From a virus, in the IMG/VR virus record IMGVR_UViG_3300025132_000028, positions 1 through 64,000 of that record: a stretch of DNA of 64,000 bases. The stretch is one strand, 5' to 3'. The translations under genes and the position numbers were made by a program. Shown here piece by piece: positions 5,172 through 38,430 of this stretch (the first letter of the stretch is position 1; every line of letters starts with the position of its first letter). Below the pieces are notes generated by a model. It saw nothing but the letters and a program-made list of their open reading frames with translations, was not told the DNA's origin and did no database searches.

Positions 5172-5579
5172 ATGCCTATTTCCAATAGGATTACCTCAAA
5201 ATCGTTCAAAGATATCAGTTTTTCATTCACACCTCACCCAGTAACGAATGATTTGCTCGTTGTTAAGAACGAAGATGCAATAAAGACAGCAATTAAGAAT
5301 TGTGTTTTTACACTTCCTGGTGAAAAATTTTTTAATGCACAATTTGGATCGCCAATAAGAGATACTCTGTTTAATTTAATTGATGATGCAACTGCTTCTG
5401 TAGTTTCTGATACAATTAAGAACACAATTCAGTTATATGAAACTAGAGTTAGTAATGTTAGTGTTGAAGTTGAGTCTAGACCTGACCTAAATGCATTTGG
5501 AGTAACAATATTTTATGATATTATTGGGGATTTATCCTCAGCCCAAGCAATTTCGTTCATCCTAGAGGCTACAAGATAA
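5172..5579 (+). CDS. gp25: baseplate wedge subunit
   Basis: FKDIS.SF..HPVT.DL..KNEDAI...PGEK.F...FGS..YE.RV motifs; precedes gp6. Confidence 0.92.
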   Translation: MPISNRITSKSFKDISFSFTPHPVTNDLLVVKNEDAIKTAIKNCVFTLPGEKFFNAQFGSPIRDTLFNLIDDATASVVSDTIKNTIQLYETRVSNVSVEVESRPDLNAFGVTIFYDIIGDLSSAQAISFILEATR

Positions 5580-7471
5580 TGCCATCTAATAAGTTTACAA
5601 ATTTAGACTATGAGGATATTAAATCCTCTATTAAAGACTACCTAAGAGCAAATACCGACTTTACTGGTTTTGACTATGAAGGGTCAAACATGTCGGTTCT
5701 TATCGATACATTAGCATATAACACATATCAGACTGCATTTAACACTAATATGGTTGTTAATGAATCTTTTATAGATTCTGCTACTCTTAGAGAGAACGTT
5801 GTTTCACTTGCTAGAAATATTGGTTATGTTCCTAGATCAAGAACTGCTGCACAAGGTACAATAAGTCTTAGTGTTACTGATCCAAGTAGTGTTATCAATG
5901 GAAATACACTGACTTTAAGAAAGGGTCTAGTTTGTACTGGTGATTCTTCTGGAACAACATATGCTTTTGCCATTCCAGAGGATAGAACAGTAGCAGTTGT
6001 AAATGGAGTTGCTGATTTTGGGCAGTTTGAGGTATATGAAGGAACATTATTATCAAAAGCATTTACAGTTAGTGGTCATAGTGAGCAGAAGTTTGTTTTA
6101 GATAATCCATTTATTGATACATCGACTATTAGAAGTGTTATTTTTAGACCTGGAGAGATTGGAGATGGTAGAAGATATAGATTAGTTGATAATATCGTTA
6201 AAATTACCAAAGACTCTGAAATTTTCCTACTTCAGGAGATTGAAGATGAAAAATATGAAGTTCTTTTTGGTGATGGATTTTTTGGTAAGAAATTAGATCC
6301 AAATACAGATATTAGAATCGATTATATTGTAACTGAGGGTAGAGAAGGAAACGGTGCTCGTAATTTTTCATTTGGAGGAGATTTTTATGATGGTTTGAAT
6401 GTTAGTGTAAATCAGAGCACTCTAACTATCACGTTAACTACCGTTCAAGCCGCTCAGAGTGGCGATGAGATCGAGTCAATTAACTCAGTTAAGTATTATG
6501 CTCCTAGGTTATATTCATCGCAATACAGGGCGGTTTCTGCAACTGATTATGAAGCGATAATTCAGCAAATTTATCCCGATACTGAGAGTGTTTCAGTCGT
6601 TGGTGGTGAAGAGTTAGACCCACCACAATTTGGAAATGTCATAATTAGTATCAAACCAAGAAATGCTAACTTTATTTCTGACTTTACTAAACAACAAATT
6701 ACAACTGAGTTAAAGAAATTTGCTCTTGCAGGAATTAATCAACAATTAGTTGATCTACAAATCCTAACTGTTGAGTATGATTGTTTTGTATATTATAACA
6801 GTAATATATTCAATGATGTATCTACTCTTCAAACAAGAATCAGTAATTCTGTTCAAAAGTATGCTAATTCCTTAGATCTCAATAAATTCGGTGGAAGATT
6901 CAAGTATAGTAAGTTCGTTAATATTGTCGATGATTCTGATAGATCGATTACGTCAAATATTACAAGAATCCAAATGAGAAGAGACCTTCGTGCAGAAATT
7001 AATGTTACGAGTCAATATGAATTATGTTATGGTAACCAATTCCACGTTAATTTAGAAGGTAGGAACATTAAATCCACTGCTTTTAATATCAGAGGAGAAA
7101 GTGCACCTGTTTACTTTAGTGATGAACCAGATGGCAGCACAACCACAGGAAGACTAACTATTGTTAGCGTAGATAGTAATGGTGAAGTTGTTACTATAGA
7201 CGGTAATGCAGGTACAGTTGATTATACGCATGGAGAAGTTCTTATTAATTCAATTTTCATTACTGGAACTTCTTTAAGTCAAAATATTATTGAAATACAA
7301 GCAACTCCAGAGTCTAATGATGTCATAGGATTAAAAGATTTGTACCTCAATGTAGATTTATCTAAAAGTACTATAAATATGATTAAAGATACGATTAGTT
7401 CGGGAGATCAGATTTCTGGAGTATCATATCCAACTTCTTCTAGCTACACTAACGGATCACTAACTCGATAG
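5579..7471 (+). CDS. gp6: baseplate wedge subunit
   Basis: LDY.DIK..IKDYLR...FT..DYEGSNMSVLID.LAYNT, SATLRENVVSLA, FGDG..G, RAV...DY motifs. Confidence 0.95.
   Translation: MPSNKFTNLDYEDIKSSIKDYLRANTDFTGFDYEGSNMSVLIDTLAYNTYQTAFNTNMVVNESFIDSATLRENVVSLARNIGYVPRSRTAAQGTISLSVTDPSSVINGNTLTLRKGLVCTGDSSGTTYAFAIPEDRTVAVVNGVADFGQFEVYEGTLLSKAFTVSGHSEQKFVLDNPFIDTSTIRSVIFRPGEIGDGRRYRLVDNIVKITKDSEIFLLQEIEDEKYEVLFGDGFFGKKLDPNTDIRIDYIVTEGREGNGARNFSFGGDFYDGLNVSVNQSTLTITLTTVQAAQSGDEIESINSVKYYAPRLYSSQYRAVSATDYEAIIQQIYPDTESVSVVGGEELDPPQFGNVIISIKPRNANFISDFTKQQITTELKKFALAGINQQLVDLQILTVEYDCFVYYNSNIFNDVSTLQTRISNSVQKYANSLDLNKFGGRFKYSKFVNIVDDSDRSITSNITRIQMRRDLRAEINVTSQYELCYGNQFHVNLEGRNIKSTAFNIRGESAPVYFSDEPDGSTTTGRLTIVSVDSNGEVVTIDGNAGTVDYTHGEVLINSIFITGTSLSQNIIEIQATPESNDVIGLKDLYLNVDLSKSTINMIKDTISSGDQISGVSYPTSSSYTNGSLTR
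7372..7379 (+). promoter_or_regulatory. T4-type late promoter for gp7
   Basis: TATAAATA inside the 3' end of gp6. Confidence 0.6.
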
Positions 7472-28563: not shown

Positions 28564-30120
28564 ATGCCCGCTATAGTATCAGACCAATTCAGGATCCTAA
28601 ACGCAGCCAATTTCGTGTCTGATGTTTCAGATTCAAATAATTCGTATTATGTCGTTCTTGGACTCGCGAACCCAACTCAGGTTGGTTTTGGTAGGAGTTC
28701 CAATTGGGATAATTCAACCCCGTATCCAGTAGATGATTTTAATTATTCTAATCATGTTCGCGATACCATGCTTTTTGGTAAGAAAATTACCAAAGACAAT
28801 ATCAGAAGATTGATTAGAAGAGTTGACTGGACGCAAGGTACAATTTATGAAATGTACCGACACGATTACAGTATTCAAGCTCCATCTCCTGTAACCAACT
28901 CTACTAGATTATATGATGCGAACTATTATGTAATGAATTCAGACTTCCAAGTTTATATTTGTTTACAGAATGGTTCTTCAGGTATCAATACTGTTGGTAA
29001 TCAATCTCTTGATGAACCAACTTTTACTGATCTTGAACCATCTAAAGCGGGTAATAGTGGAGATGGTTATGTTTGGAAATATATGTATACTGTCTCACCT
29101 GGAGACATCATTAAGTTTGATACATTAGAATACATCCCGATACCAAATGATTGGGAAACGGTTACGGGTCCTGTTGCATCTGTTAGAGATAATGGAAACT
29201 CGGATGTAAACCTGAACCAAATTAAAACAGTTTATATTGAAAAACAAGGTGCGGGATATGGTATTGGGCAAAACCAACCCGTTGATATTCTTGGCGATGG
29301 AACAGGAGGAAAGGCAGTTCTATCTGTAGATTCTTCAGGTAAAGTTACTAGTGCTACTGTATCATCTGGTGGTAGTGGTTATTCTTTTGGTATTATTGAT
29401 TTATCTTCAATTAATACTGGATCTATTACTGACAGAGCATTCTTAATTCCAATCATCCCACCAACAAAAGGACATGGTTTTAATGCATATAATGAATTAG
29501 GTGCTGACAAAGTTTTGATTTATGCTCGTTTTGACGACATTGGTGATTTCCCAACTTCTACAAAATTTGCACAAGTTGGTCTACTTAAGAATCCACTTTC
29601 TGTTGGTTCAACATCTGTACAGTCTTCAAATTCATTTAGTTCTACAAATGCGATCGTCTTAAATACAATTTCTGACGTCACGCAAATTTCAGTAGGATCT
29701 AAAATTTCTCAAACTATTGGTACTGGTGTTACTGCCTTTGGATGGATAACATCTTTTGACAATACAACAAATGTTGTTAGATACGCTCAAGATAGATCTT
29801 TATACTTTAATCAGTCTACAACAAATCAAGAAGATGACCCATTTGCTTCTCGTCAATCTTTTATAAAACATGCTTTTACAAGTGCTGTAGCGAACATCAC
29901 GATTGGTTCTGCAAGTTGCACAATCAACACAGGATTTACTGGTATTAATACAGTAGGTACTTCAGGTGCTCTAGTCGATCTTGGAATTAACTTCACAAGT
30001 GGTCTTTCTGGTCCAGAAATTGAAGTTTCATCTGGTGAGCTTATATATATTGATAACAGGCAAACCGTTTCGAGGAACCTGAGACAAAGAGAAGACGTAA
30101 AAATCGTACTGGAATTCTAA
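28564..30120 (+). CDS. gp8: baseplate wedge subunit
   Basis: AIVSDQFRILNA, RR.DW..G..Y.MYRHDY, YYVMNS...VYICL, DGY.WKYMY, C-terminal Q.EDVKIVLEF. Confidence 0.92.
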   Translation: MPAIVSDQFRILNAANFVSDVSDSNNSYYVVLGLANPTQVGFGRSSNWDNSTPYPVDDFNYSNHVRDTMLFGKKITKDNIRRLIRRVDWTQGTIYEMYRHDYSIQAPSPVTNSTRLYDANYYVMNSDFQVYICLQNGSSGINTVGNQSLDEPTFTDLEPSKAGNSGDGYVWKYMYTVSPGDIIKFDTLEYIPIPNDWETVTGPVASVRDNGNSDVNLNQIKTVYIEKQGAGYGIGQNQPVDILGDGTGGKAVLSVDSSGKVTSATVSSGGSGYSFGIIDLSSINTGSITDRAFLIPIIPPTKGHGFNAYNELGADKVLIYARFDDIGDFPTSTKFAQVGLLKNPLSVGSTSVQSSNSFSSTNAIVLNTISDVTQISVGSKISQTIGTGVTAFGWITSFDNTTNVVRYAQDRSLYFNQSTTNQEDDPFASRQSFIKHAFTSAVANITIGSASCTINTGFTGINTVGTSGALVDLGINFTSGLSGPEIEVSSGELIYIDNRQTVSRNLRQREDVKIVLEF

Positions 30121-30129
30121 TCTGAGACA

Positions 30130-33100
30130 ATGCCACAAAGAACCAATTTAAATATTAATCCATATTATGACGATTTTGACGCAGAAAACAATTACTATAG
30201 GGTATTGTTCAAGCCTGGTTTTCCAGTTCAGGCTAGAGAATTAACTACATCTCAATCTATTCTTCAGAATCAGATTGAGAAATTTGCTAGACATACTTTC
30301 AAAGATGGATCTGTTGTAATACCTGGTGGAGTTAGTTATGATTTTGATTATCAATCAATTCAGATTGAATCAACTTTCCTTGGTTTGAATGTTGGTGATT
30401 ATATTACATCTTTTATAGGAAAAGAGATTAGAGGTCAACAAACAGGTCTTGAAGCAAAGATTGTAAATGTTCTTCTTTCTTCGCAAACATCGAGTGGTAA
30501 TATTACTCTTTTCATAAAATATACTTCTGGTACATCTGGTAATCAAGTAGGTGCTTTCCAAGACGGAGAGACTTTAATTACTGAAGAAAACGTTGTATAT
30601 GGAAATACAACTATTTCTAGTGGAAACACTTTTGCAGTTACTATTGCAACTAATGCAGCACAAATAGGTTCTGCTGCTCACGTAGATGCTGGTACTTTCT
30701 TCTTCAGAGGTTATTTTGTTGATGTTAAAAAGCAAACAGTAGTTTTAGACGAAGCCGACGATACCCCTTCATACAGAGTTGGTCTTCAAATTAGTGAAGA
30801 GATTGTAAACGCAAAGCAAGATAATACTTTATATGATAATGCAAAGGGTTTTACTAACTTTGCTGCTCCTGGTGCTGATAGATTTAAAATCCAAACTACT
30901 TTAGTTAAAAAGAGTCTTACTGATCTTAATGACTCAAGTTTTATTGAACTCTTAAGAGTTGACGAAGGTGTACTTTTAAATGTACCCAATAAACCAGCGT
31001 ATTCTGTTATTAAAGATTATATTGCTGAAAGAGATTTTGAGAGAACTGGTAACTTCTTCGTTGAACCTTTTGATATTACTTTCCATGAGTGTTTGAATAA
31101 TAGAAGAGGTAATAATGGTCTGTTTTATGATAATCAAGTAACTGATGAAGGTGCTGTTCCTTCTAACGATTTAGCTTGTGTTTCTGTAGGTTCTGGTAAA
31201 GCATATGTAAAAGGTTATGATATTGATAGACCTGTTGCAACAATTTTAGATATTCCAAAACCAAGAACAACTCGTAAAATTGAAGATGCTTTTGTTCCAT
31301 ATAATCTAGGTAGTCAAGTTCAAGTAAATAATGTTTATGGACATCCTGCAATTAAGAGAGAAGTTCAATTATACAGTCAAAGATTAGGTGCTAATGGAAC
31401 TACTCTTGCGGGTGAAAGAATTGGTGATTGTAGGTGCTATTCTTTTAATTTAACTTCTGGAGAATACTTATCTCCTAAAACTCCATTTACTTTATTTGTT
31501 TATGATGTAACATTATATCAGAAGTTACATCTTGCTAATCCTCTCAGTGCTGCTCAACTTCCTGCTGGTGCATATATTACAGGTCAATCTAGTGGTGCAT
31601 CTGGATATGTAACCGCAGCTGGTACTGGAAGTGCCAAAGTCTTTGTAAGAGATACAAGTGGAACTTTCATCCAAGGTGAAACAATTTATATTAATGGCAT
31701 TAAAGAGAATGCTAGAAAAACTTTAGATGTAAGAGTATATGATAGTACTGATGTAAAATCTGTTTATCAACAAGCTTCTGCATTAGGTCTACAGGCAAAT
31801 TTCTATGGTGATGTACTTTTAGTAGGTCAACCTGTTCCTGGATTTAAAGAAACAGACCAATTTAATATTACTGCTGCTGGTAAAGTATCAATTAACAGTA
31901 AAACTCTTACTGGTATTAAAACAGATTCTTTACTCGCTGTTCAGCAAGTTGGTTTTACAACAACCACTTTGTATAGAGTAAAAGATATTGCAAAAACTGG
32001 ACTTGAAGTTACTATAGAAGCAACCACAGATGTTGTTGGAATTACTACTGGTGCTCTTCCTGCAGCGAATATTACATCAACAATTATTGCTTTTACACCT
32101 ATTGTACAAAATATTAATCAGGATGAGATGTATGTTTCTCTTCCACAAAGTGATGTTGCTACAGTAGATTTACAAAATTCAAGTCTTGAGTTTCATACCC
32201 AACTTACTGCATTAGCAACTAATGGTTCTGGTGAAATGACAATCACTAATACCAGTGGTGTTCAAGGTGCTTTATTTGAAGCATTTGATGAAGAAAGATA
32301 TAGTATTGTTTATTCTGATGGTGTTATTGCAACAATATCATCAAATAAATTTGAATATAACAGTGGTTCAAATACAATCACAATTAAAGGTTTAAGACAA
32401 TCTCAAACTAACGTTGTTGCCAATGTTGTGATGAAGAAACCTCAGTTTAAGGCAAAGAGTAAGGTTGTTAATCGATCACAAGTTGTAAATATTACTAGAT
32501 CTGCAAATAAACAATCTGGATCTACAGCAAATAATAGTTTAAATGATGGTTTGTCATTTAGTACGTTTTTTGGAACTAGAATTCAAGATAAGAAAATTTG
32601 TTTGAATTATCCAGAGGTTATTGAAGTTCTTGCTATTCATGAATCTTTTGATTCTAATGCACCTACATTCGATAAACTAAATCTCACTTCTGTAGAAAAT
32701 GTACAGACTAGTGCTATTATTGGTGAAAGTATTATTGGTAATGATAGTAAAGCAATTGCAAGACTTGTAGCAAAACCTGGTGCTGCTCAAGTAGAGTTTG
32801 TATATTTAACTGATGCTAGATTTATTCTTGGGGAAGATATTTCTTTTAATGAGAGTGATATTGTTGCAAGTATTGATAGTATTGTTAATGGAAGTTATAA
32901 AGATATTACTTACAGATATTCATTAAGTAATGGTCAAGAACATGCGTTCTCAAACTATGCTTCTCTTAGTCGAAGTGCTAGTAGTGGTCAACCTCCAACT
33001 AGACAGTTAAAAGTTGTATTTGATTATTACTCTGTTCCTTCTGGTGATGATGGTGATGTTGTAACTGTAGATAGTTACCCACAGTCTGTGTTTAGAGGAT

Positions 33101-36100
33101 TGATCCCAGATATGGAGTCTGAACGGGATGGTTCTACTACTGGTGGTACAAACGTCTTAGACTTTAGACCTGCTGTTGCCATATACGATCCAGCAACTGC
33201 ATCAGCACCTCCATTTAGTTTTGCATCTAGAGACTTTGGTGCTCTTAATAAACCAGCTCTACCTCTAGCAGTTGGGGAAGGATCTTTAGTAAGTTTTGAA
33301 TATTACTTATCAAGAAAAGATAAACTATTCTTGAATAAAAATGGTGATCTATCTATTGTTCAAGGTGTGCCTGGTGAAGGTGAACCTGACGATTTAGATG
33401 CTGACCATATGTTATTGGGTACTATCAGTTTACCTGCATATACAGATGAAACTGATTCTATTGATATTGATTTAGAAAACCCAAGAAGATATACTTTTGC
33501 TGATATTGCTAAATTAGATAATAAAATTAGTGCTCTTGAAAATTCAGTTACTCTTTCTATGTTAGAAGAGGAAACAAAAAACGTTGACATTAGAGATGCA
33601 ACTGGTAAAGCACGTTTCAAAAATGGTTTCTTTGCTGATAATTTCCAAACTAGTGAACAAATTGATGATGACCACCCAGATAATAAGTGCGAACAGACCG
33701 ATGAAGGTAGCGGTACAATTACACCATTACCATCAAACGCATCTTTAAAAACATTAATTGTAACTAAAGATGAAACAACATCTGCTACTTACGATAGTAC
33801 AACTGATTATGACCTTTTAGATGATAATGTTGTTAAGAGGGGTGACCTCTTGATGCTTAAGTATGAAGAGAAAGAGTGGGTAAAACAACTTGCAGCAACT
33901 GGTGTAAGTAATATTAACCCATTTAATGTTATTACATGGGCAGTTGCAATTACACTAAAACCTGATATTGATAGTTGGTCTAGAAAAATTCAAACTCAAC
34001 AAACTGTAAAGATTAAAGGTAAACAAAAAACAGTAAAGGTTGTTACTAAGCGTTATAAGTGGGTTCGTACTGGTTACTGGTGGGGCTGGTGGGGTCGTTG
34101 GCGTTGGTATTGGCGTCGTTATAGATGGAGATGGTGTCATTGGAGTTGGGGGTACTACTGGTATCGTCGTGGTTGGAGATATGGATGGAGATGGCGTTAC
34201 GGTTACTACAGATATCGTTGGAGATACGGCTATTGGGGCTGGTGGGGCTGGGGCAACCGTTGTATGCGTCGAGTTGCTACTTACACTACTACTTACAAGA
34301 AGGTTGATGTACCAACACCAACGCCTGCAGATAAGGTCGAGAAGATCAAGTCGCAAGCAGAAGAGTATATGCGTTCTAGAAACGTACTTGTTGATGCACT
34401 GTCTTGTAAACCAAAGACTAGGTATTACCACTTCTTTGATGGAAGTAATACTTTGGATATTGTACCAAAACTTCTTGAAATCAAGAATGTTACAGCAGCA
34501 TTCAAAGTTGGTGAAACTGTAATTGGTAAGAGTGGGAAAGCAAGAATTAAGTTCAGAGTTTGTACACCTAACCATAAGAGAGGTAAGTATAACAAACCAG
34601 ATAGAACTTATAGCATAAACCCATACAATACTGCACAGAATATTCCTACGACATATTCTAAGTCTTCGACAGTCTTAAACGTAGACGTCGCTTCGATGGC
34701 GGAGGAAGCACAAGGTTCATTCAGTGGATATGTTGTTAATGGCATGTTACTGACTGGTCAACAGTCTGGTGCGACTGCAAAGGTAAGTCAGATTCGTTTG
34801 GTTTCTGATAAGTTTGGTGATATTCAAGCAACGTTCTTTATCAGAGATCCTCTTGCAAATCCTGCACCTCCAAACAGATTTAAGACAGGTACTAAGCAAT
34901 TTGTTCTTAATACTGATATTAACAACACTAAAGCAGTTCCTGGATCTACCAAGATCTCTTCAGGACAAGCAGATTATAAGTCTACTGGTGTTATTGAAAC
35001 TTGGAGAACGACAAAGTATAAGGTTTACTTCCATAGAGACCCTCTTGCACAGTCGTTTACAACAGATGCTAGTGGTGTATTCCTTACTAGTCTTGACGTT
35101 TGGTTCTATACTAAGGATGAAAAACTCCCAGTATTCCTTGAAGTCAGACAAATGCAGTTGGGTATTCCAACCAGAAATGTTTTAGAATATTCTGAAGTAA
35201 AACTTGATCCAGACCAAGTTACATTGGTTCCTGACACTGGTGCATCTGCAGGTAATAACACTTATAAGACCACATTTACATTTAAGTCTCCTGTATTCTG
35301 TTCTCCAAACACTGAATTCTGTGTCGTTCTCTTGTCTGAGTCTGATTCTTATGAAGTCTTCCTTGCAAGGATGGGTTCTAAGACACTCAACTTTAAGGCA
35401 CTAGGATTAGGTCAGAACTCTCAGCACAGTAAACAGTGGGGTGCTGGTTCTCTATTCAAGTCTCAGAACGGTTCTATTTGGACTCCAACTCAGGAAGAAG
35501 ATTTAACATTCAGACTTAAGAGAGCAAACTTTACAGCTACCTCTGGTACTGTTTATATGCACAACCCAGATCTTGATGTAAGTAATAATTACATTAGAAG
35601 ACTCGATCCCGATTCTTTCCAAGTCGTTTCTAGATCTGTAACTGTTGGTATTGATACAGTCACAAATGGAACTACCATGGCAGGTATTCTTACTACTGGT
35701 AGGAAAATTGGTGAAGCAACTTCTTCTGAAGGTGGTACTTCTGGTAAGTCTTATGTCTTTGGTACTATTGAAAGTACTGGTGGTCCTATTGACCTAACAT
35801 TTGGTTCTTACGCAGGTATTTCTACAGTTGCTATTGGTGGTACTGATTACATCGATGGTCAATATAATAATGTTGATCTGTTCGCTGTTACTGGTAATGG
35901 AGTTGGTGCAAAAGCAAACCTCTTTGTTGAAAATGGAAACGTAACTGCTGCTGGTGCAACTATTGTAGATGCAGGACATGGTTATACTGTGGGTGATATT
36001 ATCGGTATTACAACTGCTGATGCTGGTGGTGCTGGTTCTCAATGTCAATTGTCAATTGAAGCAACTAGTGGTGTTGATAGATTATTCCTAGAAGATGTAC

Positions 36101-37566
36101 GTGGTAACACTTTTGTTACTAGTGAAAAACTTGTTTACTTCAATGATTCTGGAACTAGAGTAGCACTTGCAAACACGACAATTACATTGTCCGCAAGAAC
36201 TGGTCCTACCTCTAATGAAGGTGACATGATAATTGTTTATCTTCCAAATCATGGAATGTATAGTGGATCTAACAAGATTACTATTAGTGGATGTAAGGAT
36301 CTTGCAGATGCAACACAACTATCTGCTGATGTTACTTCTACTAGCACGGTAATTTCTGTTGCTTCTACCATGGGTTATGAAACATTTGAAGGAATGCCAG
36401 TAAGTGCAACAAATCCAGGTTATGTATTAGTTGACGATGAACTTATTTCTTACACTGGTATTGGTGCGGGAACATTAACTATTGGTACTAGAGGTGTTGA
36501 TGGTACAGTTTCTACTCCACACACTAACGGAGAAGAAGTTGACCTGTATGAACTACAAGGTGTATCTCTCAGAAGAATTAACACAACTCATGACATTGAC
36601 CCTTATGAGTTTGATATTGATAACTTCTATATCAGAATTCAGAGAGATCAAAATGGTACAACCAGAAATGATGATGGAACATTGGTTAATGCTCCACTCC
36701 TAAGTTTCGCTGATAGTGGAGCTGCTGGTGGTGATGAAATCGATACCACAACTAACTTGTTGTACTCTAGCATCAAACCTAACTACAGAGTTATTAAACC
36801 TACTGGTAAGACTTCTGTTACTGCACAAGCCAGAACAATCACAGGTACAAGTCCAAGTGGAAATGAAGTCTCTTATGTAGATAAGGGTTATGTAAACATT
36901 GATCTTGGTAATGTTAATGAGTTTAGAGATGTAAGAATGATTGCTTCTAAAGTTAATGAAGACACATATAACACTGAACTATTCAGGAATAAGTCTTTCA
37001 CAACTGCGATCACATTACAAACAACAGATACAAATGTATCTCCAACTATTGACTCAACGGTTGGTGCAACTGAATTTGAATTCTTTAGACTTAATGATCC
37101 AGTCAATAATTATGCCCTAGATGGTCGTGTTAACATTGCTGGTGAAGATCCACATGCATCCGCATACGTAAGTAAGAATGTTTCGCTTGAGAATGAATCA
37201 CAAGCACTAAAAGTGATTATTGAAGCATACAGAAGTGACACATCTGATTTCCGTGTTGCATATCAACTCCAAACAAGTGCTGAAGGTGGTGCTGCTCCAT
37301 GGCGTCTCTTCCCTGGTTTTGATAACTTGAAAGACACTGATGGTAACGGATTAGGTGATGAAGTTATTACTCAATTGAATAATAACGGTAAGCCAGATAG
37401 AAAGATCAGAGCATCTGCTCCTTTATCTGATGAATTCATCCAGTATGAGTTTAATGCTCAGAACTTAACTGAATTCACAGGATTTAGAGTCAAGATTATG
37501 ATGTCTGGTACAAATGCTGCTGATCCTCCAAAGTTCAGATCAATCAGAGCGATTGCATACACATAG
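30130..37566 (+). CDS. large virion structural protein, VrlC/DUF4815-like (2478 aa)
   Basis: N-terminal N.NPYYDDF....YYRVLFKPG.PVQARELT..QSILQ.Q, APGADR, GKAYVKGY, DPLAQSF, GSLFKSQN...W. Confidence 0.85.
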   Translation: MPQRTNLNINPYYDDFDAENNYYRVLFKPGFPVQARELTTSQSILQNQIEKFARHTFKDGSVVIPGGVSYDFDYQSIQIESTFLGLNVGDYITSFIGKEIRGQQTGLEAKIVNVLLSSQTSSGNITLFIKYTSGTSGNQVGAFQDGETLITEENVVYGNTTISSGNTFAVTIATNAAQIGSAAHVDAGTFFFRGYFVDVKKQTVVLDEADDTPSYRVGLQISEEIVNAKQDNTLYDNAKGFTNFAAPGADRFKIQTTLVKKSLTDLNDSSFIELLRVDEGVLLNVPNKPAYSVIKDYIAERDFERTGNFFVEPFDITFHECLNNRRGNNGLFYDNQVTDEGAVPSNDLACVSVGSGKAYVKGYDIDRPVATILDIPKPRTTRKIEDAFVPYNLGSQVQVNNVYGHPAIKREVQLYSQRLGANGTTLAGERIGDCRCYSFNLTSGEYLSPKTPFTLFVYDVTLYQKLHLANPLSAAQLPAGAYITGQSSGASGYVTAAGTGSAKVFVRDTSGTFIQGETIYINGIKENARKTLDVRVYDSTDVKSVYQQASALGLQANFYGDVLLVGQPVPGFKETDQFNITAAGKVSINSKTLTGIKTDSLLAVQQVGFTTTTLYRVKDIAKTGLEVTIEATTDVVGITTGALPAANITSTIIAFTPIVQNINQDEMYVSLPQSDVATVDLQNSSLEFHTQLTALATNGSGEMTITNTSGVQGALFEAFDEERYSIVYSDGVIATISSNKFEYNSGSNTITIKGLRQSQTNVVANVVMKKPQFKAKSKVVNRSQVVNITRSANKQSGSTANNSLNDGLSFSTFFGTRIQDKKICLNYPEVIEVLAIHESFDSNAPTFDKLNLTSVENVQTSAIIGESIIGNDSKAIARLVAKPGAAQVEFVYLTDARFILGEDISFNESDIVASIDSIVNGSYKDITYRYSLSNGQEHAFSNYASLSRSASSGQPPTRQLKVVFDYYSVPSGDDGDVVTVDSYPQSVFRGLIPDMESERDGSTTGGTNVLDFRPAVAIYDPATASAPPFSFASRDFGALNKPALPLAVGEGSLVSFEYYLSRKDKLFLNKNGDLSIVQGVPGEGEPDDLDADHMLLGTISLPAYTDETDSIDIDLENPRRYTFADIAKLDNKISALENSVTLSMLEEETKNVDIRDATGKARFKNGFFADNFQTSEQIDDDHPDNKCEQTDEGSGTITPLPSNASLKTLIVTKDETTSATYDSTTDYDLLDDNVVKRGDLLMLKYEEKEWVKQLAATGVSNINPFNVITWAVAITLKPDIDSWSRKIQTQQTVKIKGKQKTVKVVTKRYKWVRTGYWWGWWGRWRWYWRRYRWRWCHWSWGYYWYRRGWRYGWRWRYGYYRYRWRYGYWGWWGWGNRCMRRVATYTTTYKKVDVPTPTPADKVEKIKSQAEEYMRSRNVLVDALSCKPKTRYYHFFDGSNTLDIVPKLLEIKNVTAAFKVGETVIGKSGKARIKFRVCTPNHKRGKYNKPDRTYSINPYNTAQNIPTTYSKSSTVLNVDVASMAEEAQGSFSGYVVNGMLLTGQQSGATAKVSQIRLVSDKFGDIQATFFIRDPLANPAPPNRFKTGTKQFVLNTDINNTKAVPGSTKISSGQADYKSTGVIETWRTTKYKVYFHRDPLAQSFTTDASGVFLTSLDVWFYTKDEKLPVFLEVRQMQLGIPTRNVLEYSEVKLDPDQVTLVPDTGASAGNNTYKTTFTFKSPVFCSPNTEFCVVLLSESDSYEVFLARMGSKTLNFKALGLGQNSQHSKQWGAGSLFKSQNGSIWTPTQEEDLTFRLKRANFTATSGTVYMHNPDLDVSNNYIRRLDPDSFQVVSRSVTVGIDTVTNGTTMAGILTTGRKIGEATSSEGGTSGKSYVFGTIESTGGPIDLTFGSYAGISTVAIGGTDYIDGQYNNVDLFAVTGNGVGAKANLFVENGNVTAAGATIVDAGHGYTVGDIIGITTADAGGAGSQCQLSIEATSGVDRLFLEDVRGNTFVTSEKLVYFNDSGTRVALANTTITLSARTGPTSNEGDMIIVYLPNHGMYSGSNKITISGCKDLADATQLSADVTSTSTVISVASTMGYETFEGMPVSATNPGYVLVDDELISYTGIGAGTLTIGTRGVDGTVSTPHTNGEEVDLYELQGVSLRRINTTHDIDPYEFDIDNFYIRIQRDQNGTTRNDDGTLVNAPLLSFADSGAAGGDEIDTTTNLLYSSIKPNYRVIKPTGKTSVTAQARTITGTSPSGNEVSYVDKGYVNIDLGNVNEFRDVRMIASKVNEDTYNTELFRNKSFTTAITLQTTDTNVSPTIDSTVGATEFEFFRLNDPVNNYALDGRVNIAGEDPHASAYVSKNVSLENESQALKVIIEAYRSDTSDFRVAYQLQTSAEGGAAPWRLFPGFDNLKDTDGNGLGDEVITQLNNNGKPDRKIRASAPLSDEFIQYEFNAQNLTEFTGFRVKIMMSGTNAADPPKFRSIRAIAYT

Positions 37567-37609: not shown

Positions 37610-38071
37610 ATGTCATCACCTGATCCTGACTTATCAGCTTTTAATGAATTTGCCTTTCAAACTATCTTGGATCAATACCAAGAAGATGAAATTTGGAAGA
37701 TGTATAAAGATCAGCAAAAACTTGATGATCAATTAAAAGAGGAAGAAAAAGAAATTGAATACATTGAAGAAGCAAGAGAAGGCGATGAGGAATTTTCTTT
37801 AATGAATTTTACTGAAGAATTTGATATCAGACCAGTAGCAGATAATCCTGGTCTTTATAAAGATATGAGTACTGGTGCAGTTTTAAATATGGACAATACT
37901 GCTTTTAAGATGTATCAAACTAACAAAATAAGATCTGAAGCAGTCCAAAGAAAACAAGAAGAGACAAATGAAAAAGTTTCTAAAATGGATCTTGAAGTGG
38001 AAGAAATGAAAGGAGATCTTAAAGAATTGAAAGGTTTAATTAGAGATTTGATAAAAGGACTAAATAACTAA
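37610..38071 (+). CDS. hypothetical protein with C-terminal coiled coil
   Basis: 153 aa; PGLYKD.STGAVLN motif and heptad-rich C-terminus. Confidence 0.8.
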   Translation: MSSPDPDLSAFNEFAFQTILDQYQEDEIWKMYKDQQKLDDQLKEEEKEIEYIEEAREGDEEFSLMNFTEEFDIRPVADNPGLYKDMSTGAVLNMDNTAFKMYQTNKIRSEAVQRKQEETNEKVSKMDLEVEEMKGDLKELKGLIRDLIKGLNN

Positions 38072-38091
38072 ACGGTATATATTTTTTTCTG

Positions 38092-38430
38092 ATGGCAGCA
38101 GTTTACAATAAAAATATTGTTATTAATACTGGTTCAACTTTCAATGAGACCTATAACTTAAGAAATCCAGATGAGACTTCTTACAGTTTAGTTGGTGCTG
38201 GAATGAGTGGTATTTTGAAAAAACATCCTGGTGCTAGTTCTGGAGTTGGTTTTGCAATGACTTCTACTGATCTTGCAGGAGGAGAATTAAAATTGACAAT
38301 GACCTCAACAGATACTAACAAATTAAAAGAAGGTCGTTACAGATATGATGTTTTGGTCACAGAATCTGGTGGAGATAAAGTCCATATTATAGAAGGTTCA
38401 GCAATGGTAAGAGCAGGAGTAACCACATGA
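38092..38430 (+). CDS. small virion structural protein (BppU N-terminal-like Ig fold)
   Basis: N..I..G.TF..T..L, T..LK.GRY.YDVLV...IEG...V..GVT; ACTAAATA late promoter at 38059-38066. Confidence 0.7.
   Translation: MAAVYNKNIVINTGSTFNETYNLRNPDETSYSLVGAGMSGILKKHPGASSGVGFAMTSTDLAGGELKLTMTSTDTNKLKEGRYRYDVLVTESGGDKVHIIEGSAMVRAGVTT

Follow-up and report, generated by a model that had tools for sequence, protein, structure and literature searches.

The 64,000-nucleotide stretch analyzed here (the window; positions 1 to 64,000 of the IMG/VR virus record IMGVR_UViG_3300025132_000028) contains a vrlC-like gene (30130-37566, + strand) whose 2478-residue product is a baseplate arm scaffold of the DUF4815 family and a functional stand-in for T4 gp7, and this product carries a 74-residue insert rich in Trp, Arg, Tyr and Gly (34051-34272, +; residues 1308-1381). 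The insert is genuine and in frame, the annotated frame is the selected one, and comparison with related sequences indicates that its composition is maintained while its sequence drifts. The protein family and its role as an arm scaffold were already known; in the literature searched (supplements not covered) no Trp-rich, composition-selected appendage of VrlC, or of any phage baseplate or tail, is described. Our preferred reading, with a probability of roughly 0.4, makes the insert a flexible aromatic-cationic tip, exposed at the end of a stalk, by which the phage would adhere to the host envelope.

T4-like cyanophages are among the most abundant viruses of the sea, and to our knowledge the fixation of their baseplates to Prochlorococcus and Synechococcus is largely unknown; the literature searches yielded no structure of a cyanophage baseplate. 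A composition-selected Trp-rich arm appendage that recurs in several lineages is a candidate host-contact or protein-tethering element. As an extreme natural segment, with 28-42% Trp over 74 residues, it is also relevant to the design of membrane-active peptides, and it informs how an assembled machine tolerates low-complexity aromatic sequence.

The insert and its reading frame

The sequence-only reading had described a 74-residue Trp/Arg/Tyr/Gly insert with no acidic residue, in frame in a 2478-residue protein, and both the counts and the translation were confirmed. The segment consists of 21 Trp, 19 Arg, 14 Tyr, 11 Gly and 2 Cys, together with a single Lys, Val, Thr, His, Ser, Asn and Met, and contains neither Asp nor Glu, giving a net charge of +20 (the lone His not counted); the open reading frame (ORF) 30130-37566 is stop-free through 34051-34272. 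Only 8 Trp occur in the remaining 2404 residues of VrlC. The binomial chance of 21 or more Trp in 74 residues is about 1e-34, and across the whole window no second stretch with at least 5 Trp per 30 residues was found in frame in ORFs of 100 residues or more. A query of the ESM Atlas with the 74 residues returned no usable match, the 2.5 kb surrounding the insert matched nothing at the DNA level among the named phages (a collection that may lack records close to the window), and a tRNA scan of the window, run with the supply of tRNA-Trp in mind, found 0 genes.

A DNA repeat had also been noticed at the similar ends of the insert, and it is there: an exact repeat search found the 14-nt direct repeat TGGGGCTGGTGGGG, encoding W-G-W-W-G, at 34081-34094 (+) and again at 34234-34247 (+), near opposite ends of the insert. 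No third copy exists in the window or elsewhere in the 72,663-bp record, and 0 of 100 shuffled controls gave two matches to it. Further internal repeats comprise 9-nt and 12-nt tandem units and one 18-nt pair. The G+C content of the insert is 53%, compared with 36% for the gene; of its 19 Arg residues, 12 are encoded by CGT, a codon used 8 times elsewhere in the gene, and of its 11 Gly residues, 5 are encoded by GGC, used twice elsewhere. The repeats, and a codon use unlike that of the rest of the gene and consistent with an amplified seed, would fit a tolerated low-complexity expansion, in which slippage or duplication of TGG-rich units enlarged an unconstrained surface loop with no specific binding role and selection acts only against stops, frameshifts and misfolding. 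We consider both this origin and this mode of selection unlikely, and the evidence that bears on them is given below with the copies of the insert and with its relatives. Separately, a 14-nt inverted repeat, 93% complementary, joins 34100-34113 within the insert to 34312-34325 in a Pro/Thr-coding stretch 198 nt downstream.

Independent copies establish that the segment is not an artifact of one assembly. The source record is rated 38% complete. The insert is present in six other IMG/VR contigs (94-96% protein identity), with 0 indels over the 1401 nt compared, and confirmation by sequencing runs was likewise obtained, since Logan contigs from three runs of different studies span the insert with 0 gaps. 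DNA divergence among these indel-free copies (7 contigs and 3 runs) is 4-7%, and despite the internal repeats they differ by no indel, which argues against an unconstrained expansion. In all, 20 runs contain the stretch, and they belong to 15 studies of marine, seawater or viral-metagenome material. The 90%-identity protein cluster that holds the insert has 145 members, and 5 of the 15 members listed are full-length at 2478 residues.

The pattern of substitution identifies the frame. The proportion of synonymous differences (pS) of the insert in frame 0 is 0.14-0.19, similar to that of the flanks, whereas reading either of the remaining forward frames gives a pS no higher than the proportion of non-synonymous differences (pN). 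Arg is kept through codon swaps (CGT to AGA, AGA to CGC), and both differences that run X17 shows within the insert are synonymous. The ratio of non-synonymous to synonymous change (dN/dS) is 0.37-0.41 in the insert and 0.05-0.13 in the flanks; the rise to about 0.4 is what a tolerated expansion would show, yet the value is still below 1. The sequence-only reading had allowed that compensating indels might hide a true frame rich in Gly, Val and Asp, and this is ruled out by the indel-free copies and the synonymous excess in frame 0.

An assembly or sequencing error of that kind, or a gene on the opposite strand, could appeal to three further frames, the Gly/Val/Asp-rich +1 frame and two in antisense, which are open across the insert in all 7 contigs because the insert is A-poor, and to database ORFs that stop or start at the insert. 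Thus 4 of the 15 listed cluster members are 1100-residue ORFs beginning at M1379 (window position 34264, at the insert end), the 254-residue ORF P0289 on an 846-nt contig ends within the insert, and the 99-residue ORF P0290 begins at M1379. These truncated ORFs are probably contig breaks in a repetitive, microdiverse stretch, with split forms of the protein as the alternative, and none of the shorter proteins inspected (8 of the 27 found) reads the Gly/Val/Asp frame. Same length and same frame in the six other contigs, the five full-length cluster members and the contigs of three runs, the occurrence of the stretch in 20 runs from 15 studies, and a synonymous excess confined to frame 0 contradict an artifact, which is essentially excluded. 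Two overlapping ORFs, of 206 residues in antisense (33955-34575, -) and of 160 residues in the +1 frame (34040-34522, +), show no synonymous excess within the insert and are a side effect of its A-poor composition.

Within the frame thus established, residues change while the alphabet appears to be kept. Four haplotypes are found in the window lineage, with 8 of the 74 insert sites variable, and at 6 of these 8 all states lie within the set {W, R, Y, G, H}; a Ser and an Asn of the window itself account for the remaining two. Because only 141 of the 474 single-base non-synonymous neighbors of the insert stay within this set, the rough P value for 6 of 8 sites is 0.011 (direction-free). The same tendency is seen at greater distance. 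The sister lineage P0003 is 69% identical to the window protein overall and 68% and 73% identical in the two 300-residue flanks. When its Trp-rich core is aligned with that of the window, 38 of the 66 aligned columns are identical and 16 columns hold gaps. In spite of these changes, 66 of 74 residues in the window core and 70 of 74 in the P0003 core belong to the five-letter set, as compared with 16.8% in the rest of VrlC. An alphabet kept at 89-95% in two lineages whose flanks are 68-73% identical is difficult to reconcile with a tolerated expansion, and since a single base change can turn any TGG codon into either of two stop codons, keeping 21-31 of them would be costly. Of the Trp/Arg composition put forward by the sequence-only reading, the Trp, Gly and aromatic part is retained and Arg as a conserved element is not: since P0003 has 31 Trp but 6 Arg, the constant elements appear from these alignments to be Trp, Gly, aromatics and some positive charge, and not arginine as such.

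Two other sources of the changes were considered and set aside. Gene conversion between internal repeats as the origin of the clustered changes at 34187-34206 finds only 10-11-nt matches and is a weak candidate, further weakened by contig L012, which has the same residues there through other codons. The differences are also not A-specific, as mutagenesis of a target variable region by a diversity-generating retroelement would have them: between the window and contig L009, 5 of 15 insert differences fall at A on the window strand and the others at T, G or C (a reverse transcriptase was not searched for).

Variation at the hairpin site across the family

Two conserved blocks bracket the insert, N-[VI]-N-P-F...D.W on its upstream side and M-R-S-R-N on its downstream side. 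In the window the upstream anchor is N-I-N-P-F (residues 1261-1265; 33910-33924, +), whose columns vary little or not at all in alignments A1, A3 and A4, and the downstream anchor is M-R-S-R-N (residues 1414-1418; 34369-34383, +), whose R, S, R and N do not vary in A1 or A4. Two samples of relatives were compared between these anchors, a near set (120 of 711 matches) and a set of representatives at 50% identity (150 of 486). Loops could be anchored in 118 of 121 sequences of the near set, where 48-148 residues separate the anchors (median 54) and the window is the longest, and in 40 of the 150 representatives, many of which are fragments, where 42-170 residues do so (median 109). The hairpin site is hypervariable across the family sample, with 42-170 residues between the two anchors, and long loops at the site are mostly rich in Thr, Ser, Arg and Asn. 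The sequence-only reading had asked whether the loop between these anchors is hypervariable yet conserved in composition: the hypervariability is confirmed, and aromatic-cationic loops recur in other lineages, but the loops are not generally cationic, their median net charge being 0 in both sets.

When a Trp cluster is defined as 4 or more Trp in 15 residues, the site bears a cluster in 6 of the 118 loops anchored in the near set, namely those of the window, its 95% cluster, P0003, P0008, P0045 and P0091, and in 1 of the 40 anchored among the representatives (P0130). Five Trp-loop lineages are counted in total, and all have a net positive charge. The cores differ widely: beside the window lineage (21 Trp, 19 Arg, 14 Tyr and 11 Gly in 74 residues, net +20) stand P0003, with 31 Trp, 18 Gly, 8 Tyr, 7 His and 6 Arg in 74 residues (net +6); P0130, with 14 Trp and 14 Arg in 72 residues, 7 of which are acidic (net +7); P0091, with 9 Trp in 22 residues (net +5); and P0008, with 8 Trp in 17 residues between poly-Thr arms (net +3). 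A W6 is common to P0008 and P0045, which are 69% identical overall, and its retention again speaks against a loop in which any residue would do. A scan of IMG/VR for patterns encoding YWWGWWG gave 21 loci and no additional lineages; 7 were VrlC (the six known contigs and the P0003 contig) and 14 were short out-of-frame chance matches.

The history of the trait was followed on a FastTree tree built from the 420 residues downstream of the loop, the loop itself being left out. Its 66 rows are what remained of the 6 Trp-loop proteins and 64 proteins drawn at random from 158 further full-length ones, once 4 that lacked an anchor had been dropped. The Trp-cluster trait needs 4 changes on this tree, and the well-supported branches force at least 3 gains or losses. 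Repeated, independent gain or loss of cationic Trp clusters is not what a loop under no demand for composition would be expected to show. A tolerated expansion can point in turn to the rarity of Trp loops among the relatives, to a core that is predicted to be disordered, and to the equally odd poly-Thr, Lys-rich and Ser/Asn-rich expansions that occupy the same site elsewhere; P0134, for instance, has poly-Thr arms with a Phe-rich tip. Other low-complexity expansions at the site, Lys/Arg runs among them, are found in P0138, P0140, P0206 and P0134, and in one Lys/Arg-run loop there are more than 10 basic residues in twenty.

Among the six named phages compared the trait was not found. The VrlC (or "VriC") proteins of the cultured cyanomyoviruses S-SRM01, Sf-CH5, S-T4, S-SKS1, S-SSM7 and ACG-2014f are orthologues in the same gene neighborhood, and unlike the window their anchor-to-anchor stretches are rich in Ser, Thr, Asn and Arg and differ in length; 0 of these 6 has a Trp-rich loop.

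Predicted structure and candidate roles of the tip

AlphaFold2 folds of residues 1234-1640 (mean predicted local distance difference test score, pLDDT, 78.4; predicted template modeling score, pTM, 0.66) and of residues 1040-1850 (mean pLDDT 65) place the insert on a hairpin of an immunoglobulin (Ig)-like beta-sandwich (residues ~1268-1625; 33931-35004, +; model m4b89c3e4f483 and its structural matches), which in the model appears to be nested in a second, outer sandwich. The Lys/Thr/Val-rich strand-like arms that had been read from the sequence are present and are predicted as long beta-strands by DSSP. The outgoing arm (residues 1280-1313; 33967-34068, +; model residues 47-63 and 65-80) is formed by strands at 1280-1296 and 1298-1313, with one non-strand residue between them, and the returning arm (residues 1379-1410; 34264-34359, +; model residues 146-161 and 169-177) by strands at 1379-1394 and 1402-1410, with a Pro/Thr kink. 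Besides the core, the window exceeds short-loop relatives by about 23 residues on its outgoing side and by about 17 on its returning side. The pLDDT falls toward the core, from 96 through 90 and 77 to 70 in successive blocks of the outgoing arm and rising again through 51, 74 and 74 to 94 in the returning arm; in the smaller fold the core at residues 1316-1379 scores 37-46, and in the larger fold all of residues 1286-1408 fall below 50. If paired, the two arms would make one stalk about 5-7 nm long; the pairing is put conditionally because the model output lists strands and not contacts.

In the mechanism that we favor, a short surface hairpin of the Ig-like domain would have been lengthened in the window lineage into two Lys/Thr/Val-rich beta-strand arms, with ~17-23 extra residues each, bearing a tip of 65-74 residues for which no fixed structure is predicted and in which Trp, Arg, Tyr, Gly and His make up about 90%. 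Six such tips per baseplate would act as a multivalent, sequence-unspecific adhesive, whose Trp and Tyr side chains may partition into the outer-membrane interface of the host or stack on envelope sugars, aided by positive charge, and which would keep the baseplate attached to the surface of the cyanobacterium while the phage adsorbs and its sheath contracts. The tips would then presumably be oriented toward the cell. The residue swaps tolerated position by position in the core and the repeated gain of the Trp trait in the family are counted in support, as is the hypervariable site, since host-contact regions are usually hypervariable.

The composition of the tip matches that of residues which favor membrane interfaces and stack on sugars. 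Trp/Arg-rich antimicrobial peptides act at the membrane interface, and the interfacial membrane binding of indolicidin, tritrpticin and (RW)n-type peptides is the model for the proposed mechanism. The insert resembles such peptides in its clustered Trp with flanking Arg, its net positive charge and its lack of acidic residues. Short Trp/Arg-rich peptides are described as antimicrobial (PMC2937036) and as free molecules of roughly 6-13 residues (PMC2937036, PMC11858513), unlike the insert, which is an internal segment of 74 residues within a 2478-residue structural protein, with no sign of release; no proteolytic processing signal was seen for it, although no search was aimed at one. In architecture, a functional tip held away from an Ig-like or beta-rich domain by a long stalk of two strands has analogies in the ultralong complementarity-determining region (CDR) H3 of bovine antibodies, a stalk and knob in which the knob is a disulfide-rich mini-domain, and in viral fusion proteins, which bear aromatic/Gly-rich fusion loops at the tips of hairpins. 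There is no homology to either analogue, the knob of the bovine CDR H3 is not of low-complexity Trp-rich sequence, and the antibody rows among the structural matches reflect the common Ig fold only.

Several points weigh against such an adhesive tip. Arg is not conserved, P0003 having 6 such residues, and the zero median charge shows that the site is not cationic in general. About 95% or more of the sampled relatives have no Trp cluster, and the feature is therefore dispensable for the family. Across both folds the Trp-rich core has a pLDDT of 27-46, with no fixed structure predicted, and the period-2 pattern of an amphipathic strand is not significant in the insert (aromatic signal at 160 degrees, shuffle p 0.08). 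Cyanobacterial lipid A is described as lacking phosphate, and the core of the lipopolysaccharide (LPS) as lacking Kdo and heptose (PMC4390846); because of this lipid A, the classical Arg-phosphate contact with LPS is a weaker analogy. The phage 812 homologue holds other baseplate proteins with hydrophobic loops, and it also has an aromatic-rich excursion at the same site. The 35 aromatic side chains, if exposed, would be aggregation-prone and may be buried against a virion protein. A more far-reaching version seems to us rather doubtful: that a virion-borne anchor for the membrane interface evolved at least three separate times in marine T4-like cyanophages, as a very long relative of the (RW)n-type peptides with up to 42% Trp, on a beta-ribbon stalk on each of six arms, and that it would bring about receptor-independent, irreversible adhesion to the outer membrane, or its local loosening, taking over the job of the T4 short tail fibers.

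The phage 812 precedent deserves separate consideration. The arm scaffold gp117 of Staphylococcus phage 812 (PDB 9EUF and related entries; DUF4815, 1152 residues) is the sole solved relative by sequence. The 1152-residue chain is taken as gp117 from its N-terminal match and from the arm entries that hold it, and it matches the 2478-residue protein by phmmer (E 2.3e-29; 4 stretches, including the N-terminal helices), by Foldseek (E 4.9e-15) and by VIA (Z 21.7, root-mean-square deviation (rmsd) 9.9, 381 aligned; Z 23.4, rmsd 11.9, 233 aligned). The two proteins are homologous over most of the length compared. They have N-terminal wedge helices in common, and in each an excursion separates the two conserved anchors; in the window the gene adjoins one for a gp8-like arm-segment protein. 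They differ in length (2478 versus 1152 residues), in identity, which is 22-30% over structurally aligned residues, and in that the phage 812 excursion is not of Trp/Arg low complexity. Residues 588-776 of chain 9euf_0 are the best structural match of the host domain (Z 10.7, rmsd 2.3, 112 aligned), and the next rows, which are Ig-, IPT- or macroglobulin-like with Z 6-7.7, reflect a common fold only. The insert falls between anchors that align to phage 812 chain residues ~580-690, inside the matching domain. Its counterpart in phage 812 may be either the bulge, which bears docking loop 2, or the elbow: the elbow is worded as a "double beta-sandwich", which suits two sandwiches nested in one another, but chains of phage 812 in the post-contraction state are aligned over chain residues 403-944 with the large model and are not among the rows for the small domain model.

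According to the description of phage 812, the N-terminal 176 residues of gp117 lie in the wedge, two docking loops of 28 and 40 residues fit hydrophobic residues into crevices of the tripod trimer, the longer docking loop permits a rotation of about 170 degrees, receptor-binding protein 2 (RBP2) is attached near the elbow domain via an unresolved part of the scaffold, and six gp8-like arm-segment dimers strengthen each arm (PMC13433997). By this precedent the insert may serve docking or tethering inside the virion, with the Trp-rich tip plugging a hydrophobic crevice of a trimeric fiber or receptor-binding protein or bridging to a neighboring arm. Since only 112 residues align over a span of 189, the phage 812 chain also has extra residues there, and in the profile alignment about 100 residues, many of them aromatic, lie between the same anchors; burial of 35 aromatics in a partner would moreover solve their solubility. 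We nonetheless judge this role somewhat unlikely. Swaps of the kinds R-to-W, Y-to-W and W-to-Y are tolerated in the core, as are indels when sister lineages are compared, its non-synonymous evolution is 3-8 times faster than that of the flanks, and it is predicted to be unstructured; a fuzzy contact therefore fits better than a shaped plug. Most relatives have ~25-30 variable residues of unrelated composition at the site, and no partner emerged from what was compared, the 7013-residue neighbor alone having been checked, with no PDB sequence match. Should the tip be a docking element after all, the docking-loop principle of phage 812 would extend to hosts of the Gram-negative type. Readings of the segment as a GW/WG "Argonaute hook" or as an RGG-like nucleic-acid-binding element were set aside because the protein is a baseplate component.

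VrlC and its gene neighborhood

The assignment of the 2478-residue protein draws on the ORF, on Pfam and tblastn matches and on the phage 812 chain 9euf_0. The Pfam match to DUF4815 (PF16075) scores 201.2 bits (gathering cut-off 30; E 3.2e-59) in 3 stretches, and the closest named relatives by tblastn are cyanomyovirus "VriC" or virion structural proteins, with 37-42% identity over 94-95% of the length. VrlC is described as taking the place of T4 gp7 in the cyanomyophages and pelagimyophages, which have a two-layered baseplate (PMC7029224). By analogy with phage 812 gp117 and T4 gp7, the window protein is presumably the scaffold of each of six peripheral baseplate arms, present in six copies.

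The gene lies in a block of baseplate genes, near the gp6-like and gp8-like wedge genes as expected for the family. Directly upstream is the gp8-like gene for a baseplate wedge or arm-segment protein (28564-30120, +; PHROG 438 "baseplate wedge subunit", E 1.8e-148), and at 4 of 6 named orthologous loci the upstream neighbor is likewise annotated as baseplate wedge or gp8. From the PHROG matches, the gene order runs from a gp6-like gene (5579-7471) through a 7013-residue ORF, the gp8-like gene, vrlC and two small ORFs to gp13-, gp14- and gp15-like genes, the terminase and the sheath. For the large terminase, identity to the counterparts in marine Synechococcus and Prochlorococcus myoviruses is 80-83%.

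The 7013-residue ORF (7473-28514, +), located between the gp6-like and gp8-like genes, contains a YHYH domain at residues 1269-1450 (Pfam E 1.2e-23); it may encode a giant protein of the baseplate periphery or of a fiber. The gap between vrlC and the gp13-like gene (37610-38430, +) holds ORFs of 153 residues (PHROG 473, virion structural protein) and 112 residues (PHROG 3304, tail fiber assembly-like). A host recognition cluster is described as sited between vrlC and gp14 (PMC7029224); it is nearly missing here, where just these two small ORFs lie. In Synechococcus phage S-SKS1 (L004; HQ633071.1, 118781-126531) the VrlC homologue has no annotated coding sequence and reads in two frames, of 286 and then 2169 residues, and this split is a frameshift or a sequencing error near the N-terminal part.

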